Origin: a virus
IMG/VR virus record: IMGVR_UViG_3300033388_005265
Coordinates: 32,001 to 96,000 of that record
Reading direction: 5' to 3' (one strand)
DNA length: 64,000 nt
The translations under genes and the position numbers were made by a program. Positions within the stretch are counted from its first letter, which is position 1. The number at the start of each line of letters is the position of its first letter. Below are positions 6,292 to 42,585 of this stretch, piece after piece. The notes beneath the pieces were generated by a model. The model was not told the DNA's origin. It did no database searches and worked only from the letters and a program-made list of their open reading frames with translations.

Positions 6292-6690
6292 CTAGTTGTG
6301 CGGATTAGTGGCAGTGAACTCAATTTGTCCACGCTCATTGACCTGGAAGTCATCTTCGTTGTCAACGAAATAACCAAGTCCTTCCAGCTTGTCGACGGCA
6401 TCTTCGATGTAATACCTTGTAGACAATTGTTCTGTAAGATCTCTTTGGTTGAACTTACCGTAGTAGAAATCTCCTACGAACGCCAGGTTTCCATCATCCT
6501 CTTTCACAAGACCGAGATGTCCTTTGCCATCTTCAATCTTGATATCTACATTCGCAGTTCTACCTTCAGCTGTAACTGAAAGCTGTTTCTTACTGGTAGA
6601 TACCTCGTGATTTATACCAAGCTTTGTAAGTGCCTTGGAAGCAATTGCTATGTCCTCCAGCTTTGTAGAAACCTTTACCCAATGTGACAT
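6292..6690 (-). CDS. ycf35: DUF1257 / Ycf35-family protein
   Basis: N-terminus MSHWVKVSTKLED...KAL.KLG; GL...DG...FVGD.Y. Confidence 0.8.
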   Translation of the reverse strand: MSHWVKVSTKLEDIAIASKALTKLGINHEVSTSKKQLSVTAEGRTANVDIKIEDGKGHLGLVKEDDGNLAFVGDFYYGKFNQRDLTEQLSTRYYIEDAVDKLEGLGYFVDNEDDFQVNERGQIEFTATNPHN

Positions 6691-6716: not shown

Positions 6717-8510
6717 TTACGATTTTTTTTCTGTTGTCTTCTTTGCGACAGCGGAACCTTTCACAATACCACCAAGACCTTTCGAGATACTGGTCTTTAC
6801 TTTCTTCTTCTTGCCTGACCTGTTACTAAGAGCTTCGCTAGACGCAAATCTTGCCTTATCATCAGCCCAGCTTCTTAGTGTACCGATCTTATCTGCCATC
6901 TGCTTGGAGATAGGCTTAAGTTCACCACAAGCCTGAAGAACATGCTCAGATGAAACCTTCTTAGCTCCGAGTGTATACGCAGATGCTATAGACTCCTGAA
7001 CGATCTTCTCGATTTCTGCACCGGTATAACCATTAGTCTGTGCAACAATCTCTTTGATATCGAAATCTTCAGGGTTCCTGTCTCTTTTCTTGAGATGGAT
7101 CCTAAGAATCTCTTCTCTTTCAGCATCTACAGGAAGATCAACAAAGAATACTTCATTGAACCTTCTGATAAGCTCAGGTGGCAGCTGGGATACATCGTTT
7201 GCAGTAGCGATTACAACAACATCTTCTTCGCATTCCTGCATCCAGGTAAGCAGAGTACCAAACACTCTTGCTGTAGTTCCACCATCTGTGCTTCCACTGC
7301 TTTGAGTACCGGAGAGACCTTTCTCCATTTCATCTATCCACAGGATACATGGAGCACATGCAGCAGCATGCTTTAGAGCATCTCTCATTCTTTGTTCTGA
7401 CTGTCCAACCAGAGAGCCCATGATCTTACCGACATCCATTCTCAGGAGTGGAAGTTTCCACATGCTTGCAACCGCTTTCGCAGCCAGTGACTTACCTGTA
7501 CCTGCTATACCGGTAAGAACGACACCTTTAAGAGCTTCAACTCCGAATTCTTTTGCTTCGTCGCTGAATGATGAACGATACTTGTCGAAATATCTCTTGA
7601 GCTCATCAAGTCCACCAACATCATCCATAGATGCAGACAGGCTAAGAACTTCAAGTATATCAGACTTTTTGATCGCCTGTTTCTTGTGCTCAAGAACTGC
7701 TTGAACGTCGATTGTACCTGTGTCAATCAGAGATGTTGCCATAGCTCTGGTAAACTCATCGAATGTCATACCCTGACCGGCACGTGCAATCTCTTGTATG
7801 CCATCGTCATCAAGGTCAATAAGATCTGGCAGACCTTCTTCTTTCTTAGCTGCATTGATCTCTACAACCGCAGTCCTTACGATATCTTCAAGCTCATCTC
7901 TATTCAGAAGATCGTAATCGAGAACAACGATATCCTTTTCAAGAGTTATTGGAAGACCGCCACCTCTGTTGCTTTGGCTGAACCCTATCTCTGGAGCTAC
8001 TACAATGATAGAGATCGGAGGACTATCGTCTCTCTTAGCCAGCCAGTTGATTGTATCCCTCATCTGTCTTGGGATAGGCTCATTGAATACAGTGTGCATA
8101 TCTTTCATGAAGAACACTGCGCCATTCGCCTTATCAGTAACCTCGTAGTTGGCAATGTTTCTTAGTGCCAGCGAAGGATTGTAAGACTTAGGGAATTCAG
8201 CTGTGCTTGGCTCATTGTCATCGCATGTAAATCTTTGATCACGCTCTGAATCCCTGATGATACCTGTGAATGATGACCAATGCAGAACCTCTACACCATT
8301 CGGGAATGCTACATGCTCCCTGAAATCCTTAATCAATCTTTCTTCTTCCGACGTTACACAGTATATCAGCTGTGTGTTTGCCATAACCAGGGTCTTAAGT
8401 TCACTAAGAGCCCTTGGAATACCTCCGGACTTCTTAACGACTCGCCGCCTTTTTGATACTGCAGGTGGCTTTACTTCATCTTTAACTGCTACTTCTTTTC
8501 CTGTCGCCAT
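6717..8510 (-). CDS. ycf46: Ycf46-family AAA+ ATPase
   Basis: TSEEER and MKDMH in degenerate N-terminal AAA; DVGGLDELK, GIAGTGKS, LWIDEMEK, ATAN, PPELIRRF, GAEIE. Confidence 0.88.
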   Translation of the reverse strand: MATGKEVAVKDEVKPPAVSKRRRVVKKSGGIPRALSELKTLVMANTQLIYCVTSEEERLIKDFREHVAFPNGVEVLHWSSFTGIIRDSERDQRFTCDDNEPSTAEFPKSYNPSLALRNIANYEVTDKANGAVFFMKDMHTVFNEPIPRQMRDTINWLAKRDDSPPISIIVVAPEIGFSQSNRGGGLPITLEKDIVVLDYDLLNRDELEDIVRTAVVEINAAKKEEGLPDLIDLDDDGIQEIARAGQGMTFDEFTRAMATSLIDTGTIDVQAVLEHKKQAIKKSDILEVLSLSASMDDVGGLDELKRYFDKYRSSFSDEAKEFGVEALKGVVLTGIAGTGKSLAAKAVASMWKLPLLRMDVGKIMGSLVGQSEQRMRDALKHAAACAPCILWIDEMEKGLSGTQSSGSTDGGTTARVFGTLLTWMQECEEDVVVIATANDVSQLPPELIRRFNEVFFVDLPVDAEREEILRIHLKKRDRNPEDFDIKEIVAQTNGYTGAEIEKIVQESIASAYTLGAKKVSSEHVLQACGELKPISKQMADKIGTLRSWADDKARFASSEALSNRSGKKKKVKTSISKGLGGIVKGSAVAKKTTEKKS

Positions 8511-8819: not shown

Positions 8820-9421
8820 GAGGCTTCATCATCTTCCTTTCGTCTTTCAAATTTTATTGTCTTGGCATTGAATCCAAGCACTGATAACATGATTGCTATG
8901 TATTCGTCAACTGTCATAAGAACATCATATGTATTTTCATGTCCTTCAAAGTCTTTAACGCTGTCAAATATACCAATTACATCACCACTATTATTTGTTA
9001 TAACGATTGGTTTTTTATAAGACCTCTTGTAAGTCTCTATGAACGCGGCTATTTTATCCCTGTCTAGTATGTCAGGCAATGAGCCTATGTTAACATCAAG
9101 AATACTTATGTCTGCTCTCTTATTTTTACTTAAGAATTCACTTATATTTAATTTAATTGTTTCAAGAGCTTTAAGCTTTTCATCTGTCTTCATATCACCT
9201 GATACATCTATTAGAGTAGCTCTTTCAAGCTTCTTTAATACTTGTTGATCAGTAGCAAAGACAAGATCATTATCCGGATGTTTCTTGCCGGCATAGCCTT
9301 TTATATCCCTGATTATAATAAAGCCTTCTGGCTCTAAATCTGGTGAGACATCCGAGAACGCTAGAAAGAATGCCTTCTTAGCAGTCTGTACGTCCTTAGT
9401 GTATACATATATCTTACTCAT
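8816..9421 (-). CDS. hypothetical protein
   Basis: Long ORF; start moved to MSKIYV (9421), which has an SD. Confidence 0.65.
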   Translation of the reverse strand: MSKIYVYTKDVQTAKKAFFLAFSDVSPDLEPEGFIIIRDIKGYAGKKHPDNDLVFATDQQVLKKLERATLIDVSGDMKTDEKLKALETIKLNISEFLSKNKRADISILDVNIGSLPDILDRDKIAAFIETYKRSYKKPIVITNNSGDVIGIFDSVKDFEGHENTYDVLMTVDEYIAIMLSVLGFNAKTIKFERRKEDDEAS

Positions 9422-10070
9422 CTTTCTCCTCGTCATCGTCGTCGTCATCTTTCTTATCAAACGCACCAGATTCCTTCATGCTTTGAACAGCCCTATCGAG
9501 AACTTCTGAAAGCTCACCGGTCATAGCTGCCTTTGTTGCAAGGTCTTGAACTTCCCCTCTTGCTTTTATAAGGTCAAGTTCATCTTGAGTGATGTCTTCT
9601 CTGGTAGACTCTATCTGAAGATTACTTTCTCTTAACATGTTACCCATTAGGAATCCATGCATTACAGCAGTGACAGCAATCTCTTTTGCTAATGGATTAG
9701 ACAGTATGAATAGTGCTGTTTCACCTTCGAATGTATCTATTGCCCAGTTAGCTATTGAACTAAACAGGAACGGTTGTACCATACTTGCAAGTGCACTCTT
9801 GCTATCATCCATTTCCTCTTTGATATATTCATTTATATTTTGAACCATCTCTGGCATTGACTGCTCTTCATCATCTTCATCAACTATTCTGGTACTAAGC
9901 TTTACCATGTCCTTAGTGTTAATGATGACTGCTTCTGCACTCTTAAACATATTTAACATGTGCTCAACCATACGCGGATCAAGTCTTGGATGATCTCCTT
10001 CTACATGCTCTGAAGATTCTTCTGAGTCATCGAACTCATATACATTTTTCTTATCCTTTTTATCCGCCAT
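9414..10070 (-). CDS. acidic hypothetical protein
   Basis: Long ORF; start moved to MADKKD (SD ggag). Confidence 0.65.
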   Translation of the reverse strand: MADKKDKKNVYEFDDSEESSEHVEGDHPRLDPRMVEHMLNMFKSAEAVIINTKDMVKLSTRIVDEDDEEQSMPEMVQNINEYIKEEMDDSKSALASMVQPFLFSSIANWAIDTFEGETALFILSNPLAKEIAVTAVMHGFLMGNMLRESNLQIESTREDITQDELDLIKARGEVQDLATKAAMTGELSEVLDRAVQSMKESGAFDKKDDDDDDEEKDE

Positions 10071-10389
10071 TCTGATCTCCTTCAATGTTATTTATATCTA
10101 AGATTTCAAAGTATTTATGTCCTATTACTATTTTTGTAAAGTTTTTTCCTAAAGGACTTTCAACTTTTGCCTCATTGATTAAGCACCATGTTCCTGGGAC
10201 CAGTTCTTCAACAAAATCTTTGCTTTCTTTTGGAACTATAAGTTCACATAAATATGAATGTTCTTTACATATTCTGTGATGAGGGTCAACAGATACTGCT
10301 TGGAACTCAATCCTAGACCAGTATTGACTGGTGTATCCTATTATTGCAGGAGTCGTTACCTTTATAATTCCATGACAAAATAAACTCAT
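10060..10389 (-). CDS. hypothetical protein, possible OB-fold
   Basis: Beta-rich; EELVPGTWCLINEAKV recalls the SSB 'L.kG..V.V.G.L' strand; weak. Confidence 0.4.
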   Translation of the reverse strand: MSLFCHGIIKVTTPAIIGYTSQYWSRIEFQAVSVDPHHRICKEHSYLCELIVPKESKDFVEELVPGTWCLINEAKVESPLGKNFTKIVIGHKYFEILDINNIEGDQNGG

Positions 10390-10391
10390 TC

Positions 10392-11006
10392 TTAATCCTT
10401 GGTCTCTATTTTACTACCACTTTTCTTAAGCCTTTCTTCTGCCTGAACAATGGCTTCTTCATCTTCACCAAATGATACAGTAGGCTTTGATTTTTCCTTA
10501 GCTGACTCTTTGTCACTGCTAAGCTTGATTGACATTACAAGTTCAGGTGGCATAATTACTATAACATTTGTAGTTGTAGAAAATGCTGCCAATCTTTCAA
10601 GATACTCATTCATATCCATTGCATTACAATCAAGAGTCCCTTTGTCTATCTCTACTCTTAAGAACTCTATGTCTGAACTGTTACAACGCAAGGCACAAGT
10701 ATCAAGTATAATACTCATGAGTCCTGGTCCTTTGTCTATGGCTACCCTATCAAGGATCCCATTGTTAAATGCCAGTGTTAGTTTCCCGTCTTCGTATCTT
10801 GCATATGCAGTGTTCTCATCAGTTGGCATCATATGCTTACCTCCACCATGGAACACTTCAAACATTTCTATCGACAGCTCTATGTTATCTATAGTTCTTT
10901 TTATTTCATTATAAACTCCGACTGGTAAATAGGATATCCTATTGGTTCTTCTGAGTTCATTAAGTATTGATTGTAACTCAAGTTTAATTAATGACATTAT
11001 CCCCAC
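10392..11006 (-). CDS. hypothetical protein
   Basis: 204 aa ORF tightly packed in the operon. Confidence 0.65.
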   Translation of the reverse strand: MGIMSLIKLELQSILNELRRTNRISYLPVGVYNEIKRTIDNIELSIEMFEVFHGGGKHMMPTDENTAYARYEDGKLTLAFNNGILDRVAIDKGPGLMSIILDTCALRCNSSDIEFLRVEIDKGTLDCNAMDMNEYLERLAAFSTTTNVIVIMPPELVMSIKLSSDKESAKEKSKPTVSFGEDEEAIVQAEERLKKSGSKIETKD

Positions 11007-11440
11007 CTCAATATCTTTGTTATTGCAGTCTCAAACAAGACTGTTAAAGCAAATACTTCGTCCATGCTCATTGCAACATTGATTCTTTTTACTGGAACCC
11101 TGTCCTTGACAACGCTGACATTCATATAGTATCCAGTAGCTGATCTTTTGAATGATATATTCTTACTGATCTTACCTTTATCATCTGTCCCGGCACCTGG
11201 ATCATGATATATTTTAATCTCTTCTGTCCCGTTGTTGAATCCACTTGCTATCTTAGTCAAGTCAGGAATGCCAAGCTTCACTGTGACCTTATCATCCCAT
11301 AAAAAGCCATCACCTTTAGGTGTATCCGATAGCTCAAGGAATACTCCTGGCCTATCTATGTCAGCCGCAAGCTTAAACTGTGCCGCCGCCTTTCCTTTTC
11401 TATATATATCAAAACTCTTAGGGTATTTCTTATCTGACAT
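10997..11440 (-). CDS. Whirly-family ssDNA-binding protein
   Basis: Collinear with plant Whirly as recalled: IYRKGKAA, FLW..K, YHDP..G..D.G...K, GYYMNVSV, E...L...F......LRW. Confidence 0.85.
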   Translation of the reverse strand: MSDKKYPKSFDIYRKGKAAAQFKLAADIDRPGVFLELSDTPKGDGFLWDDKVTVKLGIPDLTKIASGFNNGTEEIKIYHDPGAGTDDKGKISKNISFKRSATGYYMNVSVVKDRVPVKRINVAMSMDEVFALTVLFETAITKILRWG

Positions 11441-12078
11441 TATTCCTCTCTCCTCACTCTCAATGAATTTCTTAATGCTGTTTTAGATATCACACTACGT
11501 TCTCTAGTAGCTGCTAAAGGCCATAGCTTATTAATCAAATCAACTATTATGTCTCTATTAAACTCTATAAATATGTCCTTTGTTTTATGCTCATAGACTG
11601 AGCCATCATACGGTGTCATTGTTACTGTTTCATTATTTTTACATCCAACTACCTCATGTCTTGTTAGATTGTTATGTATTATTACTAAGCCATTTGGAAT
11701 TAAGATATTATTTCTTGTAACAGTAGATAGCTTAGTTATCATTCCTGAATTACATGAAGCACCATATGATTTAAGTTCTATGTTATCTATTTCAAAGAAG
11801 CTTTCTACATCTATGAACATCGCTTTATCAGGATCTTTAAATATATTAAAGTTTTTATTGTCACGTATTAATCGTAGCATATTTATAAATGCTCCTGTAT
11901 TAGCAGGCACATTAGAATGGTTATGATCATTAATACTTATGAATTGATATACCATGACTGATCCTAGTGACTTATTATTTGTCACTACTACTGCATAGCC
12001 GGCTTCATCGTTACCTAGTAGGCCATTACATAAAACTATATCTCCGCACTCATAATCGTCACTCATTTTTACTTGCAT
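11440..12078 (-). CDS. hypothetical protein
   Basis: 212 aa ORF, translationally coupled. Confidence 0.6.
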   Translation of the reverse strand: MQVKMSDDYECGDIVLCNGLLGNDEAGYAVVVTNNKSLGSVMVYQFISINDHNHSNVPANTGAFINMLRLIRDNKNFNIFKDPDKAMFIDVESFFEIDNIELKSYGASCNSGMITKLSTVTRNNILIPNGLVIIHNNLTRHEVVGCKNNETVTMTPYDGSVYEHKTKDIFIEFNRDIIVDLINKLWPLAATRERSVISKTALRNSLRVRREE

Positions 12079-12289
12079 TCCTTTTTATTAATCCACCTTT
12101 AACAAACTCTTCAAACTGCTTATTATTTATTGGTGTCTTGGTTGAATTTGCTTTGATATATTTTTTTATCTTATCGAAATTTTTATGAGTTACGTAGTAT
12201 TCTGCTTCTGCATACCATGCTTTAGATACTATGTCTATTTCTTTTCCACTCGTCAATTCTATCTTGATCAGATCTGGATTCTTTTTCAT
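12059..12289 (-). CDS. hypothetical protein
   Basis: TATAAT 5 nt upstream of ATG (possibly leaderless). Confidence 0.55.
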   Translation of the reverse strand: MKKNPDLIKIELTSGKEIDIVSKAWYAEAEYYVTHKNFDKIKKYIKANSTKTPINNKQFEEFVKGGLIKRNASKNE

Positions 12290-12318: not shown

Positions 12319-12350
12319 AAAAAAAGCCAGACACACGAGGCATCTGGCTT
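12319..12350 (-). terminator. Rho-independent terminator
   Basis: AAGCCAGA/TCTGGCTT stem followed by a T-tract on the minus strand. Confidence 0.85.
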
Positions 12351-12387
12351 TAGTCTGTATAGGCTTACGCCGGTTACAGGATGTTAC

Positions 12388-12714
12388 TTAAAATGGAGCA
12401 TCGTCATCGAGATCCTCATAGGCCTTAGTAACAATCTCACTGATCTTGTTACCAATCTCTTTGTCAATCTTACCATCGTCACCAACAGGTTTTACCATGT
12501 CAAACCATGGAATCTTCCCATCGTCTCCTGCTTCTTTGCCTTGCTTACGAGGCCAAGACACGAAGTATGAGTCTTGATATGCAACGAGTGCAATATCCAC
12601 ACTGATAACTCCACCCAGGATAAGCTGCCCTACAGCAACTTTAGGCTCCCAGTCAACCTTCTTCAGCTTAACATCCGTGATAAGCTTGCTTACATCTACT
12701 TTCTTGTCTGCCAT
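12388..12714 (-). CDS. spoVG: SpoVG-like nucleic-acid-binding protein with acidic DDDAPF tail
   Basis: ITDVKLKKV, FVSWPRK, I...V..AY match SpoVG (VTDVRLRRV, FVAMPSK, I.DAVL.EY). Confidence 0.75.
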   Translation of the reverse strand: MADKKVDVSKLITDVKLKKVDWEPKVAVGQLILGGVISVDIALVAYQDSYFVSWPRKQGKEAGDDGKIPWFDMVKPVGDDGKIDKEIGNKISEIVTKAYEDLDDDAPF

Positions 12715-12737
12715 TCTCTCTCATCTCCTCTCTTTGT

Positions 12738-13412
12738 TTATTGTTTTAGTTTTGCAGTTAAATTTTGTACATATATTTCCTCTTTAATGTAGTTAATACG
12801 CTGCTTATTTCTCTCGACTTTAACCCAGTAGTCTGAATAATTTGCTAAGCCACTACCTTTAATAATTTTATCAACATTCTCGTGACCCATATTGTATGCA
12901 GTTACTGTTGCTTGCCAGTCCCCATCATATCTTTCATGAAGTCTATTGATTTCTGCCATCCCAAGATGTATGTTGTCCCACAATCCCATAAGATTCTTTG
13001 CAGCTTTAATTCCATTATACTTCTTGGCATTCTCTGCTGTAGGCTCAAGTATCTGCATCAAACTATATGCAGGTCCATCTTTATAGTTAAGATCTCCAAG
13101 AGCATTTGGATTAAAATGACTTTCAACACCCATAATGCTTATGGTTATCTCTGTGCCATTCTCTAATACAGAGCCTTCTCCAAAATATCTTGGAGCAAAA
13201 TGCTTTACTGCTGCTATTATTTCTCTAGCAGTCTTCTTATTTAGGCGCGGGTTCTTTTCATCTATAAATCTTAAGTATGCCTGATTACAATTAGTCTGTG
13301 CACAGTTTACTCTAGAATCTAATACTGATCCACCAGGATCACCCGTACTATTACTTACGCTACCAGCCAAAATGGCTATCACTATACATAGTGCTATTGT
13401 AAATGACTTCAA
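12738..13412 (-). CDS. lytic transglycosylase (SLT domain) with N-terminal signal/anchor
   Basis: GVES.FNPNA, SLMQI, NI.LG, AYNMG motifs. Confidence 0.9.
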   Translation of the reverse strand: MKSFTIALCIVIAILAGSVSNSTGDPGGSVLDSRVNCAQTNCNQAYLRFIDEKNPRLNKKTAREIIAAVKHFAPRYFGEGSVLENGTEITISIMGVESHFNPNALGDLNYKDGPAYSLMQILEPTAENAKKYNGIKAAKNLMGLWDNIHLGMAEINRLHERYDGDWQATVTAYNMGHENVDKIIKGSGLANYSDYWVKVERNKQRINYIKEEIYVQNLTAKLKQ

Positions 13413-13430
13413 ATTTGTTCCTCCGTGCTA

Positions 13431-13931
13431 TTATGTTAGAGGAAATCCAGTGTACCCTCTGTTCTTGAGGTCTGTTTTTAATGTATCCTCATGAAATTTA
13501 GCAACAGCATCGAAGAGCTTTCTCTTCTCTGCATAATTACTAAAGTCTATTTTCTGTAGTCTTTTAAACTTATCTTTAGTCATAGGCATTACATTCTCTA
13601 CCCAGGCAAGAAAGTCTTCTTGAGCTACGTTTTCAAGCTTAGTCTGTTTGCCCTTGATGTTCAATTGTATTTCCGGATCCTCATCTTCTTCAGCAAATGG
13701 AACCGTAGCTACTTTTGGTTTACATGAACAGTCAGGACAATCACATTTCTTTTTATCCTCCTTTTTTTCTTCAGTCTTAGTTTCCTTGGGAGCTGCTTCT
13801 TTGGCTTCTTTTTTAACTACTTTGCCAGCAACATCTCCCATGTTAAGACTTAATGATGCCTTCTTTTTCTTCTTAACTTCAGGCTTCTTTGTCTCGCCTT
13901 CTGTCTTGTCGTCCTTCTTTTCGTCAGCCAT
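13431..13931 (-). CDS. hypothetical protein with charged low-complexity N-terminus
   Basis: SD aggaga; CDCPDCSC cluster. Confidence 0.6.
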   Translation of the reverse strand: MADEKKDDKTEGETKKPEVKKKKKASLSLNMGDVAGKVVKKEAKEAAPKETKTEEKKEDKKKCDCPDCSCKPKVATVPFAEEDEDPEIQLNIKGKQTKLENVAQEDFLAWVENVMPMTKDKFKRLQKIDFSNYAEKRKLFDAVAKFHEDTLKTDLKNRGYTGFPLT

Positions 13932-17063: not shown

Positions 17064-17312
17064 TTACCTGAAGCCACCGCTATTATGTATTAGACGAGCT
17101 AATCCAAGAATAGCAAATCCTGCTCCACCAAAACCAGCTACTGCTGTATCATAACTGATACCTATGCCTATAAGAAGTCCTCCTGCTGCAAAACTACCTA
17201 CAGCCGCAATATCAACCACTGTTTTTGCATCTATCTTAGCGATAGACTCTTCAACAGCAGATCCTATCTTCTTTTTAATCTGTGTTATTATACCTTCTTT
17301 TCCTTCAGACAT
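17064..17312 (-). CDS. small membrane protein
   Basis: Two Gly/Ala-rich hydrophobic helices. Confidence 0.6.
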   Translation of the reverse strand: MSEGKEGIITQIKKKIGSAVEESIAKIDAKTVVDIAAVGSFAAGGLLIGIGISYDTAVAGFGGAGFAILGLARLIHNSGGFR

Positions 17313-17481
17313 CTGTTTGCTCCTTAATTAGTTGTTTATCTTCTTGTCTTCTTTTCTTCTTCTTTACAGACTTTTTATCCCTGTCTAGGAGACCTCCCTT
17401 CATAGTAAACAAAGAGCCGTCTGCTACACATGGATTACGTGCTGTTATTTTTTTCTTCTTCTTTTTCTGTCTCTTTTTCAT
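17305..17481 (-). CDS. small basic protein (58 aa)
   Basis: Hand-translated MKKRQKKKKKITARNP...; fills the gap between packed genes. Confidence 0.45.
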   Translation of the reverse strand: MKKRQKKKKKKITARNPCVADGSLFTMKGGLLDRDKKSVKKKKRRQEDKQLIKEQTDV

Positions 17482-17482
17482 C

Positions 17483-17869
17483 TCATCTATGTAATTTCAT
17501 TCCTCTATGTGTTATGTCACCTGATACAGTTCTAATTGCGCCGCCTACTTGTCCACAAATAACATCTCCAGATACTGTCTTAACGTCACCATATACCTTA
17601 CCACACTCTATATCTCCTGACGTAGTATGTACACTTTTTACGTTTCCTTTTATGTTAACTGTATTGCAACAATCTACATCAAGGGTATCTACATCACCCT
17701 CAATAGATATGTTAATATTCTTTGAATCTGGAGTAACATCTTTGCCATTAATAGTAACCTTACCATTGCATATCTGTATGCTACTGCCTGCAACAAGGTC
17801 TCCACTAATTTTTACTCCATTTATGCTTATTCTATTCATAATCTTATTTAAGAATTTTCTTATTCTCAT
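17483..17869 (-). CDS. beta-solenoid repeat protein (DUF4097-like)
   Basis: Repeated V.T.SGD(I/V).C motifs. Confidence 0.7.
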   Translation of the reverse strand: MRIRKFLNKIMNRISINGVKISGDLVAGSSIQICNGKVTINGKDVTPDSKNINISIEGDVDTLDVDCCNTVNIKGNVKSVHTTSGDIECGKVYGDVKTVSGDVICGQVGGAIRTVSGDITHRGMKLHR

Positions 17870-17942
17870 GATATTAATAGCGTCCAGGGGCCAGAATTCA
17901 CTGACCCCCAGACTTGGGGTTGGGCGCTAGTCGCGCGTTGGG

Positions 17943-19169
17943 TTACTTGGTTGACAAGTCGAGTGACAGATCTTTCATGGCCTTTACGGTCAGAGTCTCC
18001 ATCATCGTCTGTGCTGCACTGTATTGTGCTGTTCCGCCTGTTCCACCACCGCCACCGTAGACGATTTGTGGAACCCAGTTACCTTTGTAGTCCCTGATTG
18101 CTTCGGCGTTGATCCTGGCAATTTCCTTCATGGTGTCCATTTTCATCTTCAGAGCACCGTCAGCCTTCATGATCAGCTTACGCTTTTCAGCTATACCTTG
18201 ACCAAGAAGAATGTCTTTGTCTTTGGTAAACCTTGCTGCTTCTTTATCAAGCTTTGCAACTTTCTTGTTCTTTTCAGCAAGAGCAATATCCGTTGCATTC
18301 AACGTTTCCTGTGCCCATTTTGCAGTGGCAGCATTTGCTTTACCTTCTTCAACGGCCTTGATTGCATTCTGCTCAGCTTCTTTAGCCTTTGCAATAGCAG
18401 TCTGAATATCCATGAAGATCTTACGCTGAGCTTCGATCTGACGCTCTACGTTTTTGTCGTACTTGATCTTTTTAACCTGAAGGTTGAAGATCTTAATACC
18501 AAACCTTTCAAGAGGACTTTCTTCAAGTCTAGCTCTCTGGTTAATGGCCTTTACGTCTATAAGAATCGTAGCTACTGTTACTGTTCTTTTTTCGCCGGAA
18601 AGAGGATCTATAATCTCTTCGTCACTTGTCTCTATCTTGTATACGCCGTTGTTTGTCTGGTCTGTAATATATTCTACAAGAACAGGACGCTTTTTCGCTG
18701 TAGATTCTTTTGAACTCATAGTAGGACCAGTCATATAAACTGCCCTTTGAATCGCCGGACGAATTAGTTGTGCCTCAAGCTGCTCCATTGTAGGAAACTC
18801 TGTACGTAAGAGCTTAAGTTCCTTTTCATTTGTAGACAGAGTATATGATGCATCTCCGAATATTACCGCAGCACCCTGGTCGTTAAACCTGATTGGCATA
18901 CCGTAAATCTTCGCATTTGGATCGTCCATTGCCATGCCTTTAGGCGCATTGAACTCAACAAAATCCCTTTTCTTATACGTGGCTATTTGGTCAAACCACC
19001 TTTGCTTGATACCGGCTGTTTGATGTACGGTAAGATCACCACTGATAACGCCCTGGAAAACCTTTACCTCATTTGAGTCGACATTTTCAACTGCCTGGTC
19101 CCAACCTATTCCGATTGCGGCAGCGAGTGCTACGCCAACTACTGCTGACAAAATCTGTTTAGTTGTCAT
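17943..19169 (-). CDS. SPFH/band-7 (prohibitin-like) membrane protein
   Basis: N-terminal TM, IRFND, ERFGIKI.NL, C-terminal coiled coil, VPQIVYGGG. Confidence 0.85.
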   Translation of the reverse strand: MTTKQILSAVVGVALAAAIGIGWDQAVENVDSNEVKVFQGVISGDLTVHQTAGIKQRWFDQIATYKKRDFVEFNAPKGMAMDDPNAKIYGMPIRFNDQGAAVIFGDASYTLSTNEKELKLLRTEFPTMEQLEAQLIRPAIQRAVYMTGPTMSSKESTAKKRPVLVEYITDQTNNGVYKIETSDEEIIDPLSGEKRTVTVATILIDVKAINQRARLEESPLERFGIKIFNLQVKKIKYDKNVERQIEAQRKIFMDIQTAIAKAKEAEQNAIKAVEEGKANAATAKWAQETLNATDIALAEKNKKVAKLDKEAARFTKDKDILLGQGIAEKRKLIMKADGALKMKMDTMKEIARINAEAIRDYKGNWVPQIVYGGGGGTGGTAQYSAAQTMMETLTVKAMKDLSLDLSTK

Positions 19170-19489
19170 TATTTATCCATCTCCTTTTCTTCATTAATTT
19201 TACTTACCTGTTTTATGATCTTCTTGCCCTGCTTTATTGTACTGGACGCAGTCTCTGCGAACTTTAAAGCCTTTTCTTCTGCCACTCCTATGTCACCAAC
19301 CGCTTCCTCCATTTGCGTGATTGATTCATTAAGGTTTTCTTTTGCATCACTAAATTTTTGTATTTGATCGGCATCTTTTTTGTCAAGCTTAGCAGGTTCA
19401 GCCTGAGAAAATGCCGGAATCAACACCTTTTTTACTACAAGTATGACAATTCCCATACTCACTATAAACATTATCAATTTTATTATCAA
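19169..19489 (-). CDS. membrane-anchored coiled-coil protein
   Basis: N-terminal TM; coupled to the SPFH gene. Confidence 0.65.
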   Translation of the reverse strand: MIIKLIMFIVSMGIVILVVKKVLIPAFSQAEPAKLDKKDADQIQKFSDAKENLNESITQMEEAVGDIGVAEEKALKFAETASSTIKQGKKIIKQVSKINEEKEMDK

Positions 19490-19772
19490 CGTTAACCTCC
19501 TGAAAAATTTTTATGAATTTATGGTATATTAGGACTCTTCTTTAGTAAGCCCAAGCTTCTTCAACTGCAATCTTTTTTCTAACTCTGTTCTATAATGCCA
19601 GATAAAGGTATCATACCCACTGTAGAACAGTAATGAATCTGCTATTACGCAAATACTTAAAAAAAACCAAAACATGTTTTTCTCCTTTCTATAATTTCAA
19701 AAAGTGATTAAAAATAATATTTAAAGATATGCGTATTATACACATAGCTTAATATTTTGTAAAGAGTTGAAT

Positions 19773-19859
19773 TGGCGGAGAGGGTAGGATTTGAACCTAC
19801 GCAGGTGTTACCCAGACTCCCATTAGCAGTGGGGCGCCTTACCGCTCGGCCACCTCTCC
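19773..19859 (-). tRNA. trnS: tRNA-Ser(GCT)
   Basis: Cloverleaf, loop CT-GCT-AA, long variable arm, encoded CCA. Confidence 0.92.
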
Positions 19860-19878
19860 TAAAGATATGAAAAAAATC

Positions 19879-20088
19879 TGTTGTTGGCGGAATAACAATA
19901 TTGACCACTTAGCGTTTAAAATCTCATGCTTGCATACCATATGAATCATGTTATGCGATAAAATTTCAACTGTGTTATTCCTTTACCGATGTTACACTAT
20001 ATCGTTCTTAAAAAGCGCCGATAATGTAACAGTTTGTCGTCTCGCTTATTCCCATTAGCTCAGGTCGGGTAATTGGAAACCAACAACA
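19879..20088 (-). ncRNA. candidate structured ncRNA (~210 nt) between two tRNAs
   Basis: 9-bp closing stem TGTTGTTGG/CCAACAACA, internal hairpins, T-tract after the 3' end; no ORF. Confidence 0.5.
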
Positions 20089-20100
20089 AAATTGTATTTA

Positions 20101-20192
20101 TGGTGGAGAGAGGAGGACTCGAACCTCCACAGGCTTATTGGCAATGCGGCGGATTTACAGTCCGTTGAGCTCAACCAGTGCTCAGCCTCTCC
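20101..20192 (-). tRNA. trnY: tRNA-Tyr(GTA)
   Basis: Cloverleaf, CT-GTA-AA, long variable arm, CCA. Confidence 0.92.
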
Positions 20193-20198
20193 ATATGA

Positions 20199-20411
20199 TT
20201 ATACGTACATTTCTACGGATGCTTCACATGATGGACATCCTATATGATCCTCAGTAACAATAACTTCATCAGCTTCAAGATCATCATTACATGAATTACA
20301 ATGAAAATGAAAATGTTCTATTGCTTCATGTATTTCTGTTTCATCTTCGCTAAGACATCTAAGCTCGCAAACCTTTTCAAGTATATCATCTGGTACAGTA
20401 ATAAGTGCCAT
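20199..20411 (-). CDS. zinc-ribbon protein
   Basis: CNSC...CPSC. Confidence 0.6.
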   Translation of the reverse strand: MALITVPDDILEKVCELRCLSEDETEIHEAIEHFHFHCNSCNDDLEADEVIVTEDHIGCPSCEASVEMYV

Positions 20412-20412
20412 T

Positions 20413-21444
20413 TTACGCCTTTATATTAATTAATGGTTTAACATGGTGCATTACATGCACAAGATCACTCTGAGCTTCCATAACCTTAAATGGATCTTTA
20501 TATGCAAGCTTTGATTCATCAAGAGTTCCTTTTTCTACTTTAGCTACAATATCGCTTCTTTTCATTCTATTTCTAAAGGCAGACATACTTAGTCTTTCTC
20601 TTATGACTGCACCGGTAATCTCGTCTCTTTTGCCTTCTTTGGCTTCTCTTCTGCCCATTAATCTTCCAGCTCCATGAGAGCTTGAGCATAGGCTATCAGG
20701 ATTACCTTTTCCTCTGACTATGAATGATCCATCTTCCATATTGCCTGGGATAACTCCCAACATGCCAACTTCAGCATGAGTAGCTCCTTTTCTATGAATC
20801 CATTCGCCATCTTTTAGATCTGCATGGTTATGATTACTATTTATAATTAATTTATCGTTTTTACGTATGAGCCAAGTTGCAAGCTTAACAGATAATGCTT
20901 TAGGTAATATCTTGCCAATAACACCTATAACTCTAGCAGCCATTTGTCTTCTGTTTTCAAGAGCAAATTCAAGACAGAAGTTAAGGTCAGTTATATAGTC
21001 CTTACCATCTTGAGAATTTACATCTAATGCATAGTGACCTTCTCTAGCCTTTCCTACACCAGATGCTGCTTTCATGTAGTGAGTAGCTGAAGAATGACCT
21101 ACATTTCTGCTTCCTGAATGGATAATAATCCATACATCGTCATTCTCGTCATAACCTATTTCTATAAAATGGTTCCCACCACCAAGCGTACACAGCTGTC
21201 TAAATCCACCTTTGTCATTAAACATTTCAACCATAAATGGAGTCGCAGCAGTATCCTTATATGCAGGCCATTTAGACTTCTTATCATTCTTATTGAATCC
21301 AGTAGGAATAGCTTCATATATAGCATCAAAGATTTCCTTCCTATAAGACAGGATATCTTCCTTTGCATCTTTTCTTCTTCTTATATCATCTTTGTGGTCA
21401 TCTGCTGATCCGAATGAACCTCCAAATCCTATATCCCATTCCAT
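20413..21444 (-). CDS. rtcB: RtcB RNA ligase, N-terminally truncated
   Basis: LGGGNHFIE, HSGSR, HRKGAT, SHGAGR present; N-terminal MPDxH and DIGCG Cys motifs absent. Confidence 0.85.
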   Translation of the reverse strand: MEWDIGFGGSFGSADDHKDDIRRRKDAKEDILSYRKEIFDAIYEAIPTGFNKNDKKSKWPAYKDTAATPFMVEMFNDKGGFRQLCTLGGGNHFIEIGYDENDDVWIIIHSGSRNVGHSSATHYMKAASGVGKAREGHYALDVNSQDGKDYITDLNFCLEFALENRRQMAARVIGVIGKILPKALSVKLATWLIRKNDKLIINSNHNHADLKDGEWIHRKGATHAEVGMLGVIPGNMEDGSFIVRGKGNPDSLCSSSHGAGRLMGRREAKEGKRDEITGAVIRERLSMSAFRNRMKRSDIVAKVEKGTLDESKLAYKDPFKVMEAQSDLVHVMHHVKPLINIKA

Positions 21445-21650
21445 TATCCATTGTCCTTTCCTTTACAGTGATCGCCTTTATTATAGCATGGTCCAGCTAA
21501 TGTATTGTGAGCTTCAGTACCACAGAGAACACACATAAACCGATCAGTATGATAGTGTGCATCATCAACCCTATCTGTTGGGATTAAGACGTAACCGGTC
21601 TTAATACATTTCATTTCTCTATTACATTTTAAACAATATGGAACAGACAT
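21444..21650 (-). CDS. zinc-ribbon protein
   Basis: CLKC...CVLC. Confidence 0.55.
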   Translation of the reverse strand: MSVPYCLKCNREMKCIKTGYVLIPTDRVDDAHYHTDRFMCVLCGTEAHNTLAGPCYNKGDHCKGKDNG

Positions 21651-22169
21651 TTAATATTCTCCAAAATGCAGCATATTATGACATATGCCACACATTAAGT
21701 TGCATTTTTCAACTTCTTCAAGTACTTCTACTCTAGTGTTATTCATCATTCCAGCAGTTATGTCAAATTTCTTTTCTTTTGGATCTCTATGATGAAAATC
21801 AAATCCAGCTGCATTTTTACCGTTATATTCAAGACTACATTCTATGCATTTGCTCCCTTTTAATTTGATAAGCTCTATTTTAAACTGTCTGTTTAGTTTA
21901 CGTTTTTCAGCATACTTTTCTTTACTTTCCTTTTTAACTCTTTCTTGGTTTTTTTCATACCAAGCTTTGCTTCGATTGTATCCAACTGGATATTTACGAG
22001 AACTATGTCCATTAATATATTCTTTTTGTCTTCCCCAGTTATCTATGCTTTTTGTCTTTTTTCCACAGCCACATTTACACTCAATTAATGGAGCATCTTT
22101 ATGCATCTGCTTAAATCTTCTTTTTTCGTTTTCGCTAGGTCTCTTATCGTTTCGCTTTTCTTCTAACAT
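21651..22169 (-). CDS. HNH homing endonuclease
   Basis: CIEC, FDFHHRDP, CNLMCGICH; N-terminal C.CGCG. Confidence 0.85.
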   Translation of the reverse strand: MLEEKRNDKRPSENEKRRFKQMHKDAPLIECKCGCGKKTKSIDNWGRQKEYINGHSSRKYPVGYNRSKAWYEKNQERVKKESKEKYAEKRKLNRQFKIELIKLKGSKCIECSLEYNGKNAAGFDFHHRDPKEKKFDITAGMMNNTRVEVLEEVEKCNLMCGICHNMLHFGEY

Positions 22170-27825: not shown

Positions 27826-28578
27826 ATGTCTAATCCAATTGAAAAACAATGTGCCGGTCCATGTGGACTAATAAAATCTTTATCCGATTTTCATATCCAT
27901 AAGAATGGTTTATATGGACATCGCTCTAGATGTAAGATTTGCAAATCTCAAGAAAGTGCTGAATATCGTAAAAACAATCCTAATCAAGCTATACAGTATC
28001 GTAAAAACAATGCTACTAAAGCAAAAGTCTATGGAGCTAAATACCGTAAAGACAATGCTAACATTCTTAAAGATTATTTTACTCAACATCGCCTAAATAA
28101 TCAAGATACTATTATTAAATGGCGTAAAGACAATCCAGATTATGCCAAATTATACCGACAAGACCATAAGGATACAATTTTAGCAAAAGCAGCTATTTAT
28201 CGTCAAAATAATAAGCAGGCAATTGCTGAACATGCTACTATTTATCGTAAAAACAACAAACAAAAGCTAGCTGAGTACGGCGTTAAGTATCGTCAAGACA
28301 ATCCAGGCAAAGTAAATGAAATAACTGCTAAGCGTAGAGCAGCTAAACTTCAGAGGACAGTAGCTTGGGCAGACTTAAAAGCAATTAAACAAGTTTACGC
28401 TGATTGCGAAGAAATAAACTTAGCTGCTAAAACAGCAGGATGCACCGATATATTTACTGTAGACCATGTTATTCCTCTTCAAGGAGAGTTTGTTTCTGGC
28501 TTACATGTGGAATATAATTTAGATATAATTACTCTTTCAGCAAACTCTTCTAAAGGTAATAGGTTTACTCCTGGCTAA
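27826..28578 (+). CDS. HNH homing endonuclease, YRxxN-repeat family (copy 1)
   Basis: CAGPC...CKIC; YRKNN repeats; VDHVIPLQG..VSGLHV.YNL. Confidence 0.9.
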   Translation: MSNPIEKQCAGPCGLIKSLSDFHIHKNGLYGHRSRCKICKSQESAEYRKNNPNQAIQYRKNNATKAKVYGAKYRKDNANILKDYFTQHRLNNQDTIIKWRKDNPDYAKLYRQDHKDTILAKAAIYRQNNKQAIAEHATIYRKNNKQKLAEYGVKYRQDNPGKVNEITAKRRAAKLQRTVAWADLKAIKQVYADCEEINLAAKTAGCTDIFTVDHVIPLQGEFVSGLHVEYNLDIITLSANSSKGNRFTPG

Positions 28579-29430: not shown

Positions 29431-30102
29431 ATGTCCAATATAGTAGAAAAAACTTGCTCAGGTCCATGTAGACTGACTAAACTTGTTTCTGATTTCTATG
29501 TCGATCAGATCAACAAGGATCAGTCTATTCGTTATCGCAATAAATGTAAATCTTGTATTTCTAAAGATAAAGCTAAGCATTATCGAAAACATAAAGAAGA
29601 AATCTGCAAGAGATCTTCTGATTATCGTAAAGCTAATCCTGACTACGCTGTGTCTTGGCGAAAAAATAATCCTAATTATAATTCAAAATATAATGCGAAT
29701 AACATTGAAGTCACACAAGCATATAAAAAAACAAATAAAGCTAAAATTAAAGTTCAGAGAGCAGAGCACTATAAAAGAAATAGAAAAACAATCATTGAGC
29801 GTTCTATCAAGTATAGTCTTGACAATCCAGGTAAGACTAGAGCAACTAAAGCTAAGCGTCATGCAGCAAAACTTCAGCGTACGGTAGCTTGGGCCAATCT
29901 AGAAGCAATCAAAGATATCTATAAGGATTGTGAAGAAATTAATTTAGCCGCTAAGACAGCAGGCTGTACAGAAATATTTACTGTAGACCATATAATTCCT
30001 CTTCAAGGAAAGCTAGTATCTGGCCTTCATGTAGAATATAATCTGGATATTATTACTCTTTCTAATAATTGTTCCAAAAGCAATAGTTTTATTCCAAGTT
30101 AA
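29431..30102 (+). CDS. HNH homing endonuclease, YRxxN-repeat family (copy 2)
   Basis: Same C-terminal AKLQRTVAWA...VDHIIPLQGKLVSGLHVEYNL. Confidence 0.9.
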   Translation: MSNIVEKTCSGPCRLTKLVSDFYVDQINKDQSIRYRNKCKSCISKDKAKHYRKHKEEICKRSSDYRKANPDYAVSWRKNNPNYNSKYNANNIEVTQAYKKTNKAKIKVQRAEHYKRNRKTIIERSIKYSLDNPGKTRATKAKRHAAKLQRTVAWANLEAIKDIYKDCEEINLAAKTAGCTEIFTVDHIIPLQGKLVSGLHVEYNLDIITLSNNCSKSNSFIPS

Positions 30103-31130: not shown

Positions 31131-31733
31131 ATGAATAAGATAACTGAGAAAAAATGTACTGGTCCATGTAGCTTAGTAAAGACTATTAATGAATTCTATA
31201 TTGATAGGAATCCTAAGTCTAAGTCTGGTTATCGTTCTCAATGTAAGACTTGTATAATTGAAAGTCGTACCGAATACTATTATAATAACAAAAAATTAAG
31301 AACAAAATATCTTATAGACAATGCAGAAACAACTGCTATCACACGAGCTGCTTATCGTAAAAACAACAAAGAGAAAATTGCTATTCAAGTGGCGCGAGCT
31401 CGAAAAAAGAATCCTGAGTTATTTCGCAAAAGAAACTCAGATTACAAATCAAATAATAAAGATAAGATTAATGCTGCTACAGCTAAACGTAGAGCAGCAA
31501 AGCTTCAGCGTACAGTAGCTTGGGCAGATCTAGGTAAAATCAGAGACATATATGATCAATGTATTGAAATCAATTTAACAGCTAAAACTGCAGGTTGTAC
31601 TGAAATCTTTGTAGTTGACCATGTCATTCCTCTAGTTGGGAAACTTGTATCTGGTTTGCATGTGGAAAACAATCTACAGATAATGACACTTAAAGATAAT
31701 TGTCGCAAACATAATAAATTTATTCCAGGCTAA
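31131..31733 (+). CDS. HNH homing endonuclease, YRxxN-repeat family (copy 3)
   Basis: CTGPC...CKTC; VDHVIPLVGKLVSGLHVENNL. Confidence 0.9.
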   Translation: MNKITEKKCTGPCSLVKTINEFYIDRNPKSKSGYRSQCKTCIIESRTEYYYNNKKLRTKYLIDNAETTAITRAAYRKNNKEKIAIQVARARKKNPELFRKRNSDYKSNNKDKINAATAKRRAAKLQRTVAWADLGKIRDIYDQCIEINLTAKTAGCTEIFVVDHVIPLVGKLVSGLHVENNLQIMTLKDNCRKHNKFIPG

Positions 31734-31735
31734 TT

Positions 31736-32881
31736 CTAAAGATCAGGTTCAAATACTCCATCTTTATTTATTGCACCTGAACGGAAACTAACTCCAACCG
31801 GAAAACGAGGCAGCCCATCATCCGTAAGGCCGAAATATCGTACTGTAATAAATGATTTTGCTGCAACTATTCTATCTAGATTGTTCCATAGAGCAGCTCG
31901 GTACTCGTGATTCCCACGAGGAACACAGCCAAACTCTTTATTGTCCGTGGTCTTACATATAAATGTGACGTGTCCTTCTGCAGAGCCAGAACCCTCATAA
32001 CCCCCAACCACTTGGTACTCGGCATCATCAAAAGACTTAAGTTTTAAAAGTCTATTTGAACGCTTTTTATATTCATAACCTCCGGTCATTGATCTAATAA
32101 TGGCTCCTTCGTAACCCATTTTTACAATCTCATCATGACACTTGTAAACTTCTTCTTCGTTATATGCTACATATGATTCAACAGTTACTAGTCCTGGAAA
32201 ATCTTTTTTTGAATAGTATTGTCTATATCTATACTTAAAATCTTTTTCTGGATCTACGACATCGTATATCCAGAATTCAATCTTAAGACTGTCTTCTCGC
32301 TCTTTTTTAACAGCTGCTGTTATCTGTTGAAAAGTAAGATCATGTGAATACAACTCTCCATCAAGGGTCTCATCAATCTGCATTTTTTCTAATAGCGATG
32401 GCGTCAAATGACTTACTGTTGTTATAGGTTTGCCCTTTCTAGTTTTATAGGTGATTGTATCGCCATTGATCTTAGTGGCTAGACAACGAATTCCGTCAAG
32501 CTTCATTTGTACCATTACTGGATAATTCACTTTGTTTTTATGGTCCTTATAGTTCTTAGCAAGCATAGGGAGTCGAGGAATAGATAGACTAGTCTGATCC
32601 TCCGAGTACCCTTCTTGCTCTTTCTTCTTCAAATGTTTGCTTGTTATCTCGGCTATAGCCTGTTCATATGAAGAGGTCTGATTTTTCTTGCCAAGATTCT
32701 TTCCTTCTCTTATAATCTTGCCCTGTTCTTGCAGTTTACCGTCTTTAAGCCCATGGAGAGTCTTAAATCCAGCTGTGCCATCTATATCTTCATATGCCCA
32801 AGCGCGCCATACTTTTATTTTACCTTTTGAATCAAGCCCATATAATACTGGTAAGCTGTGTGTTGGTAATTCCATTATCAT
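31736..32881 (-). CDS. ATP-dependent DNA ligase
   Basis: Motif I KLDGIR, LDGELY, EGAIIR, LLKLK; WGR-like N-terminus. Confidence 0.93.
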   Translation of the reverse strand: MIMELPTHSLPVLYGLDSKGKIKVWRAWAYEDIDGTAGFKTLHGLKDGKLQEQGKIIREGKNLGKKNQTSSYEQAIAEITSKHLKKKEQEGYSEDQTSLSIPRLPMLAKNYKDHKNKVNYPVMVQMKLDGIRCLATKINGDTITYKTRKGKPITTVSHLTPSLLEKMQIDETLDGELYSHDLTFQQITAAVKKEREDSLKIEFWIYDVVDPEKDFKYRYRQYYSKKDFPGLVTVESYVAYNEEEVYKCHDEIVKMGYEGAIIRSMTGGYEYKKRSNRLLKLKSFDDAEYQVVGGYEGSGSAEGHVTFICKTTDNKEFGCVPRGNHEYRAALWNNLDRIVAAKSFITVRYFGLTDDGLPRFPVGVSFRSGAINKDGVFEPDL

Positions 32882-33136: not shown

Positions 33137-33655
33137 TTAAAAAGGTACTTCATCATCATCACTACCGTCATCATCACCACAATATTCATCATCACAATCT
33201 GGATCATCACAATGAATACATACTGTTTCTACTTCTCTGCTAGTAGGTCCAGTTACATCCCAAGCTTCAGTTTTTTTTGCGCCATTCTTCATGATTTGAA
33301 CTAATTTTTTACCGTGGGAATTCTTTTCCTCTATTTCCTGTATCTTTATTATCTCCTGTATAGAAGCGTCTTGATGCATTAGTTCAGCTATACGATCTAT
33401 CTCTCTATCTATTTCAGCATACACTCTATATATTGTTCTCTGATCTTTATTAGCAGGAAAAGAATGTTTAACAGATGAAAATTCACCATTATTAAATATT
33501 ATTGTAATCATGTATTGCTTTTTTGTTGTTGTTCTTCTAGGTCTAAGCCCGCTGCTTGAAGTCACTACAACTGATGGAAAATCTTCTTCATTTATATGAT
33601 ACACGAACTCGTCTTTTCTAGTGTGTCTTTGATTCTTTAATAAGTTTTTCTTCAT
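33137..33655 (-). CDS. hypothetical protein with Cys/Asp tail ending DDDEVPF
   Basis: CIHCDDPDC followed by an acidic tail. Confidence 0.6.
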   Translation of the reverse strand: MKKNLLKNQRHTRKDEFVYHINEEDFPSVVVTSSSGLRPRRTTTKKQYMITIIFNNGEFSSVKHSFPANKDQRTIYRVYAEIDREIDRIAELMHQDASIQEIIKIQEIEEKNSHGKKLVQIMKNGAKKTEAWDVTGPTSREVETVCIHCDDPDCDDEYCGDDDGSDDDEVPF

Positions 33656-42509: not shown

Positions 42510-42585
42510 TGTAGGCGGGCAAGATTTGAACTTGCGTCCTCCAGCTAAACCGCTGGCGCTCTACCGGACTGAGCTACCAACCTAC
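42510..42585 (-). pseudogene. tRNA-like element with 6-nt anticodon loop
   Basis: D and T arms normal; CCAGC-GGTTTA-GCTGG; no full CCA. Confidence 0.65.

Follow-up and report, generated by a model that had tools for sequence, protein, structure and literature searches.

A minimal Whirly-family protein encoded by an uncultured tailed phage and the conserved gene block around it

The Whirly gene and its predicted product

The stretch of viral DNA described here, referred to as the window, comprises 64,000 nucleotides (positions 32001–96000) of the 119,163-bp IMG/VR record IMGVR_UViG_3300033388_005265, which has a CheckV completeness of 61%. On its minus strand at 10997–11440, the window carries a gene of the Whirly family, with an ATG start codon at 11440 and a TAA stop codon at 10999–10997. 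A preliminary description made from the DNA letters had already placed a 147-amino acid (aa) open reading frame (ORF) at this position; the ORF exists and has that length, and its strand, which the description left unstated, is minus, the plus-strand frame over 10997–11440 being interrupted by many stops. All six motif blocks quoted in that description are present and in the order claimed: IYRKGKAA (residues 12–19), VFLEL (33–37), FLWDDK (46–51), YHDPGAGTDDKGKISK (78–93), GYYMNVSV (103–110) and DEVFALTVLF...ILRW (127–146). The KGKAA motif occupies residues 15–19, and the protein ends in ...ILRWG without an acidic tail. Its isoelectric point (pI) of 9.3 is the same as that of the plant WHY2 domain of Heracleum (P0166).

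The ORF exhibits a match to the Whirly profile of Pfam, PF08536 (E 9.7e-9, profile positions 27–134 of 136), with a score of 35.6 bits against a curated gathering cut-off of 23 bits. A six-frame search of the whole record returned the same match, while PF08536 matched none of 14 control genomes. In a phmmer search against PDB sequences, all six matches were plant Whirlies, with StWhy2 at 2.9e-5. A profile of 52 sequences, built from metagenomic relatives, matched AtWHY2 over the whole domain at E 3.3e-24, and the five plant proteins AtWHY2, StWhy2, PBF-2 p24, AtWHY1 and AtWHY3 were all matched over the full domain with values from 3e-24 to 2e-21. Judged by these comparisons, the likeness to plant Whirlies is far beyond chance.

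Eight orthologues of the protein, with 60–95% identity, have many invariant positions in common. The KGKAA motif, including G16 and the second lysine K17, is invariant in these close orthologues; it reads K15-G-K17-A-A-A and aligns column for column with the plant YKGKAAL. Across the 52 phage-type sequences, residues Y13, W48, K51, H79, E128 and W146 are conserved either without exception or to at least 90%, and plants have the same residues; A19, which is also a plant hallmark position, is likewise invariant or nearly so. The conserved features held in common with plants are an aromatic residue before the motif, D-W, F-H-D-P, the E at the start of helix 2 and the terminal G/R-W. The ORF encodes a genuine Whirly in minimal form, with nothing beyond the 147-aa domain.

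An AlphaFold2 model of the protein, with the eight orthologues as input, has a predicted local distance difference test (pLDDT) score of 89 and a predicted template modelling (pTM) score of 0.83. The modelled order of elements is bbbba-bbbba, in other words two beta4-alpha repeats. The chain is ordered through residue 145 of 147, with the N-terminus eight residues before strand 1 and the stop one residue past the terminal W. When the model was compared with the PDB using Foldseek, the best 12 matches were all plant Whirlies, with template modelling (TM) scores of 0.73–0.81. The top matches were StWhy2, WHY3 and PBF-2 (E 1e-9, TM 0.76–0.81), and the next, well below the plant proteins, were trypanosome MRP1/2 (TM ~0.64) and PUR-alpha.

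A four-copy prediction gave an interface score (interaction prediction score from aligned errors, ipSAE) of 0.93 in three runs, compared with 0.00 for the best of three controls. Contacts in the predicted tetramer agree to at least 97%, the partner pLDDT is 90, and the interface is formed by helices 58–70 and 126–147, in the manner of the plant whirligig. Calibration of the tool had 20 of 30 proteins with a solved one-chain pair passing the mark, against 1 of 23 with a solved single-chain structure. The protein is most likely a whirligig homotetramer assembled through its two helices. Because plant tetramers have already been solved, the score may reflect those structures and is to be read as likeness to plant Whirlies rather than as proof of assembly. 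Sequence, profile, fold and predicted tetramer all support a stand-alone viral Whirly, as had been proposed, and the gene product is a real and conserved phage variant of a known family, whose function we infer below.

Gene neighbourhood and phage genome

The Whirly gene is joined to its neighbours by one-base TAATG overlaps on both sides. The gene upstream encodes a 212-aa protein (11440–12078, minus strand); its TAA overlaps the Whirly ATG, and a GAGGAG-type Shine-Dalgarno sequence lies inside its 3' end. The gene downstream encodes a 201-aa protein from an ATG at 10997 (10392–10997, minus strand), which overlaps the Whirly TAA. From this arrangement, the Whirly protein is most likely made together with the 212-aa and 201-aa proteins through translational coupling. 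Neither neighbour belongs to a Pfam or PHROGs family. A Rad52-like protein or other annealase was considered for these positions, and Pfam, PHROGs and the ESM Atlas returned nothing for either ORF. The 212-aa ORF evolves fast, with a single relative detectable by phmmer, and its residues 6–125 give a weak PemK/MazF-like structural lead from a poor model (pLDDT 0.52).

Further upstream is a 76-aa ORF (12059–12289, minus strand) that is conserved in relatives and overlaps the beginning of the 212-aa ORF. It is the first gene past a strong terminator-like hairpin (12323–12351, minus strand) composed of a 12-bp stem and a T run, located in the gap after a SpoVG-like gene. The number of terminator-like sites in the region is not above chance, and the intergenic position of this one is suggestive only. 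The hairpin is probably the boundary of the Whirly transcription unit, which, as the hairpin follows the preceding gene, would therefore start at the 76-aa ORF at 12289. The SpoVG-like gene itself (12388–12714, minus strand), two genes upstream of Whirly, encodes a 108-aa protein with a pI of 4.7 that ends in DDDAPF. Positions 12483–12666 within this gene are covered at ~97% identity by a 227-nt contig from a metatranscriptome library of marine sediment, for which DNA carry-over is possible. RNA contigs from sequencing runs included none over the Whirly gene, from which no statement on expression follows.

These genes are part of a longer block that runs, in order, through genes for a 503-aa protein, a 166-aa protein, an SLT transglycosylase, the SpoVG-like protein, the 76-aa and 212-aa proteins, Whirly and the 201-aa protein. 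It continues with genes for 109-aa, 223-aa, 216-aa and 101-aa proteins, an AAA+ ATPase and a DUF1257 protein, and on to CobS/CobT. The 223-aa protein (9414–10085, minus strand) is acidic and has no assigned family. The AAA+ ATPase (597 aa, PF00004, phrog_8638; 6717–8510, minus strand) marks the end of the conserved block, and the 132-aa DUF1257 protein (6292–6690, minus strand) lies directly past it and is conserved with it. Its gene order is retained collinearly in four relatives, whose contigs measure 47–188 kb and come from several studies. The ATPase gene is found 1.7–2.5 kb downstream of Whirly in all members of the window's lineage that were compared (the window and the relatives L002, L004, L010 and L011), and also in the distant phage L012 (195 kb). 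In L012, the Whirly protein is only ~25% identical, but Whirly, the 223-aa protein, the AAA ATPase, DUF1257 and two more ORFs are still neighbours. Since the arrangement is partly kept despite this divergence, the link between Whirly and the AAA block is, judging from gene order, old.

Several other observations were made on this block. The 188-kb relative L002 encodes an IS605-type TnpB (OrfB_IS605/Cas12f-like TNB; 12587–13681, minus strand) between Whirly and the ATPase, which is absent from the window. A weak DUF2997 match also follows the AAA ATPase and DUF1257 genes in L004, and the literature on DUF1257 and DUF2997 yielded nothing on a phage block. AAA ATPases with 31–38% identity are present in Rhizobium phage L338C, Agrobacterium phage JP1 and Mycobacterium Corndog-like phages. 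Upstream of the ATPase in Mycobacterium phage Dylan, gp100 and gp101 were considered as candidate Whirly-fold proteins and rejected, as hhalign gave a probability below 1% for either against the family.

Genes identified in the record include those for a large terminase (TerL), a primase-helicase, an Mre11-like exonuclease, a UvsX/RecA-like recombinase (20789–21790 of the record) and a ribonucleotide reductase, as well as an ATP-dependent DNA ligase, RtcB, RlaP and CobS/CobT-like proteins. The DNA polymerase (phrog_405) is located outside the window, at 17208–20557 of the record, and is encoded by two overlapping ORFs, one of 302 aa for the exonuclease and one of 818 aa for the polymerase. The terminase is 27–35% identical to those of large myoviruses, the nearest being Moorella phage MTATph1, Bacillus phage 0305phi8-36 and Acinetobacter phage ME3. 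Based on the terminase, the phage replication genes, the Shine-Dalgarno sites and the TAATG coupling, which is of prokaryotic type, the record is therefore an uncultured marine-sediment tailed phage of ~190 kb rather than a virus of eukaryotes or contamination from a plant or alga. Sequencing runs had only small shares of words in common with it, but related contigs with ~85–93% identity are found in marine-sediment and cold-seep metagenomes. TerL lies ~73 kb upstream of Whirly in this record and ~113 kb downstream in G001, a 145-kb IMG/VR relative. From these positions, and assuming collinearity, the two records should jointly span the whole ~190-kb circular map.

The window also contains 22 tRNA genes (19773–45782, minus strand) scattered between small ORFs; the anticodon loop of one tRNA (42510–42585) is irregular, and this gene is listed as 'tRNA-???'. 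RtcB is 343 aa in length and aligns with the Pfam model over the C-terminal two thirds of that model only; no N-terminal piece of this short-looking protein was found in the upstream ORFs. An RlaP nucleotidyltransferase gene lies alongside the tRNAs, and together the tRNAs, RtcB and RlaP suggest a tRNA-repair set. Three paralogous endonuclease VII/HNH-like genes (phrog_1035 and phrog_26577; 27826–28578, 29431–30102 and 31131–31733) are located on the plus strand within the otherwise minus-strand array near the DNA ligase, where the AT skew flips. They look like homing-endonuclease-type insertions. In G001, TerL (118830–121835, minus strand) is matched in two pieces, residues 1–205 and 203–626, which lie ~1.1 kb apart inside one stop-free frame of 1016 aa, whereas TerL of the window's phage is an uninterrupted 626 aa; this looks like an intein inserted in the G001 protein.

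Proposed function and alternatives

The preferred explanation, to which we assign a probability of about 0.55, is that this minimal Whirly is a tetrameric binder of single-stranded nucleic acid and serves as an accessory single-stranded DNA (ssDNA) factor in recombination-dependent replication or repair of the phage. Under this model, the whirligig homotetramer would form through the two helices, and single-stranded nucleic acid would be bound without sequence preference on the basic beta-sheet faces, as is the case for StWhy2. The protein would coat strands resected or displaced during replication or repair and would help the phage's own RecA/UvsX-like recombinase in the way that plant Whirlies help organellar RecAs, without being the protein-recruiting hub that an ssDNA-binding protein (SSB) provides. 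It would be produced together with the 212-aa and 201-aa proteins from a conserved, early-type block ending in the AAA+ ATPase. The second lysine of the KGKAA motif in StWhy2 (K67) is needed for 24-mer assembly and for cooperative ssDNA binding (PMC3245945), and plant Whirlies enhance the strand-exchange activity of RecA in vitro (bioRxiv 10.64898/2026.10.24.761589). On the 136-kb IMG/VR phage contig L013, a more distantly related Whirly (P0162) is encoded between RecA/RlaP and PolA. The putative ssDNA binding is carried over from the plant proteins, and the recombination role is the weakest step of the explanation.

Several points weigh against this explanation. The Whirly gene is located outside the replication cluster, ~21 kb from the RecA-like gene, and no annealase or recombinase is detectable beside it by Pfam, PHROGs or the ESM Atlas. 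Its partners in the block (the two coupled ORFs, the 223-aa acidic protein, the AAA ATPase and DUF1257) give no functional clue, and nucleic-acid binding by the protein is predicted only. In addition, Whirly-fold proteins can prefer RNA, as does ChmC of the nucleus-forming jumbo phages (PMC11077065), and many of the genes around Whirly are for RNA repair or tRNAs.

The preliminary description had proposed a phage SSB or recombination factor. A recombination or accessory ssDNA role remains plausible, while a role as the main SSB is less likely. That the Whirly protein is the principal replicative SSB of the phage, in place of the usual protein with an oligonucleotide/oligosaccharide-binding (OB) fold, would fit the plant Whirly as a high-affinity ssDNA binder without sequence preference. 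It would also fit the search for a canonical SSB, as no match to PF00436, phrog_44, gp32 (PF08804) or the Enc34/gp2.5 type (PF10991) was found in the 119-kb record or in the 145-kb relative G001, which together should span the map; the gp32 and Enc34 searches were run without a positive control, divergent OB folds can escape hidden Markov models, and the host SSB serves many phages. The Whirly gene is also away from the polymerase and the helicase, and its product has neither the OB fold nor the acidic, partner-recruiting C-terminal tip of a canonical SSB.

Tips of this type are found on two other proteins of the phage. The SSB of E. coli (PF00436, OB fold) ends in DDDIPF. The SpoVG-fold protein encoded upstream of Whirly ends in DDDAPF in the window and DMDDDIPF in relatives; a DDD[IAG]PF-like tip is present in all eight orthologues, with the P-F invariant. 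Its AlphaFold2 model (pLDDT 80) has SpoVG structures as all of its top 10 PDB matches (TM 0.65–0.80, target-normalised). This 108-aa protein may serve as an SSB-like hub of unconventional type, or it may act as a decoy for the partners of the host SSB. A second SSB-type tail, consisting of a Cys/Asp-rich end and DDDEVPF, is carried by a 172-aa ORF (33137–33655, minus strand) just upstream of the ATP-dependent DNA ligase, for which no Pfam or PHROG family was found. Because Whirly has no tail while its SpoVG-fold neighbour carries the SSB tip, an accessory ssDNA and recombination factor is rated over a main SSB, and the latter is considered unlikely.

Somewhat less likely again is that the protein is mainly an RNA binder, acting as a chaperone or protector of mRNA or tRNA. 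Whirly-fold tetramers that bind RNA do exist, namely ChmC and trypanosome MRP1/2, the latter being the next structural matches below the plant Whirlies. The window holds the 22 tRNA genes, the RNA-repair genes for RtcB and RlaP and the SpoVG-fold protein, and SpoVG is called an RNA-binding protein in the title of one paper (PMC4959528). Against this, the sequence kinship is with the ssDNA-binding plant family, the KGKAA motif included. For ChmC, no similarity to known protein sequences is detectable, and it possesses a disordered C-terminal tail, which the window protein does not, and no ChmC-like protein was present among the confident matches in BFVD.

A role in coating or compacting DNA or in regulating transcription, nucleoid-associated or PBF-2-like, on the phage or the host chromosome and with no part in recombination, appears improbable. 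Plant WHY1/PBF-2 was originally described as a transcription factor, and bacterial Whirly-related proteins bind and compact the nucleoid according to the ChmC paper (PMC11077065). The second motif lysine, which drives the formation of 24-mers on long DNA, is kept in the window protein. These points bear on the phage protein indirectly, by analogy, and neither neighbours of regulator type nor operator-like repeats came to notice, although no search was aimed at them. Finally, an artefact, whether a chance ORF, eukaryotic contamination or a recent non-functional pick-up from an alga, is refuted by the eight orthologues with their many invariant positions, by the fixed gene place in collinear phage contigs of 47–188 kb from several studies, by a window clade with 100% support in the Shimodaira–Hasegawa-like approximate likelihood ratio test (SH-aLRT) that is far from the eukaryotic clade, and by start-stop overlaps of prokaryotic type.

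Distribution, phylogeny and comparison with known systems

The Whirly family was introduced in the preliminary description as one usually described from the organelles of plants and green algae, and recent plant papers still call it plant-specific or plant-unique (PMC11712025, PMC11359715; bioRxiv 10.64898/2026.10.24.761589, late 2026). A megablast search with 5 kb of the locus and a tblastn search with the Whirly protein gave no match among GenBank phages, and PHROGs holds no family for the protein. When four diverse family members were compared by tblastn with 50,697 GenBank phage records, none of the sequenced cultured phages gave a match, which sets a limit for bench work. Pattern scans of 185,579 species genomes, for the window clade and for the clade nearest plants, found none; the method detects close relatives only and does not show absence from bacteria. 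No paper on phage members of PF08536 was found, and within the literature searched, the only published traces of a phage Whirly are an automatic UniProt name and the structural analogue ChmC. The automatic name, 'Whirly transcription factor', is attached to A0A6J5NR37 of an uncultured Caudovirales phage, which is the best structural match in BFVD (TM 0.71–0.74, 24% identity).

Metagenomic relatives form at least 150 clusters at 50% identity, mostly of 140–200 aa and mostly ending at the terminal W, and family members were checked to be on phage contigs in L012 (195 kb) and in L013, an IMG/VR uncultivated viral genome of 136 kb. The window protein belongs to a large radiation of phage Whirlies that is still unpublished. 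A quick maximum-likelihood tree of 155 sequences, unrooted and with many weak deep branches, placed the window clade (seven rows) at 100% support. The eukaryotic sequences formed one small clade (98%) amid many phage lineages, consisting of 12 named land-plant sequences, EukProt P0213 and four unlabelled metagenomic rows; the only one of these four examined, P0167, is on a contig with split, eukaryote-like genes. This eukaryotic clade is a minor branch surrounded by metagenomic lineages, and its sister group is not the window clade.

A phage or prokaryotic origin of the organellar family had been suggested from the sequence. The unrooted tree is compatible with such an origin without showing it, and the phage lineage nearest to the plant proteins is a different one from the window clade. 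Since the eukaryotic sequences are one small clade among many phage lineages, organellar Whirly may therefore be phage-derived, and whether plant organelles obtained it from a phage is an evolutionary question raised by the tree. A broader picture can be drawn only tentatively and is held to be doubtful: a lineage without an OB-fold SSB, in which the tail-less Whirly and the SSB-tipped SpoVG-fold protein handle ssDNA, and a phage Whirly radiation that was the source of the eukaryotic clade. In practical terms, a compact, tag-free 16-kDa phage Whirly would offer a simple system for tetramer–ssDNA binding, assembly on long DNA and help to RecA-type recombinases.

Compared with OB-fold SSBs (PF00436), the window Whirly likely has an analogous activity, that of a tetramer binding ssDNA independently of sequence, but the fold is unrelated and the acidic tip is absent. 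ChmC of the Chimalliviridae (PhiPA3 gp61, PhiKZ gp67 and Goslar gp176) is, like the window protein, a phage-encoded Whirly fold, and it has been shown experimentally to be a homotetramer that binds single-stranded nucleic acid (PMC11077065). ChmC has bbba repeats, no detectable sequence similarity to known proteins, an RNA preference and a disordered N/G-rich tail that drives condensates (PMC11077065), whereas the window protein is a sequence-level member of PF08536 and is tail-less. Neither a disordered N/G-rich, S/D/E-rich tail nor a chimallivirus genome was found here; the terminase is not PhiKZ-like, and chimallin itself was not searched for.

The Whirlies of other uncultured phages are short, stand-alone proteins ending at ...LGW/LRW, as is the window protein. 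The window clade has a contiguous, plant-like KGKAA, whereas many other phage lineages have YKGxxGKxGAxQF with an insert, or a Cys-rich, zinc-ribbon-like insert. Their contexts also differ, as some phage Whirlies are encoded beside RecA and PolA, while those of the window clade lie in the block from SLT to the AAA ATPase.

The plant Whirlies (StWhy1, which is PBF-2 p24, StWhy2 and AtWHY1/2/3; PF08536; PDB 1l3a, 3n1h, 4koo, 4kop and 4koq) are whole-domain homologues of the window protein, although identity is only 19–22%. Both have the bbbba-bbbba fold, the hallmark residues (KGKAA with its second lysine, D-W, H-D-P, E and the terminal W), a basic pI and a helix-mediated homotetramer, predicted in the case of the phage protein. 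The transit peptide of the plant proteins, their beta2-beta3 hairpin extension of ~12 residues and their C-terminal extension ending in E-W have no counterpart in the window protein, which, unlike them, is encoded by a tailed phage, coupled to two ORFs and linked to an AAA+ ATPase block. From the absence of the transit peptide and the E-W extension, and from its place outside the eukaryotic clade (98%), the protein is therefore classed with Whirly-domain proteins in general rather than as an orthologue of WHY1/2/3. A phage source of organellar Whirly, if true, would have its counterparts in the organellar RNA polymerase, Twinkle and PolI-like enzymes, which are phage-derived.

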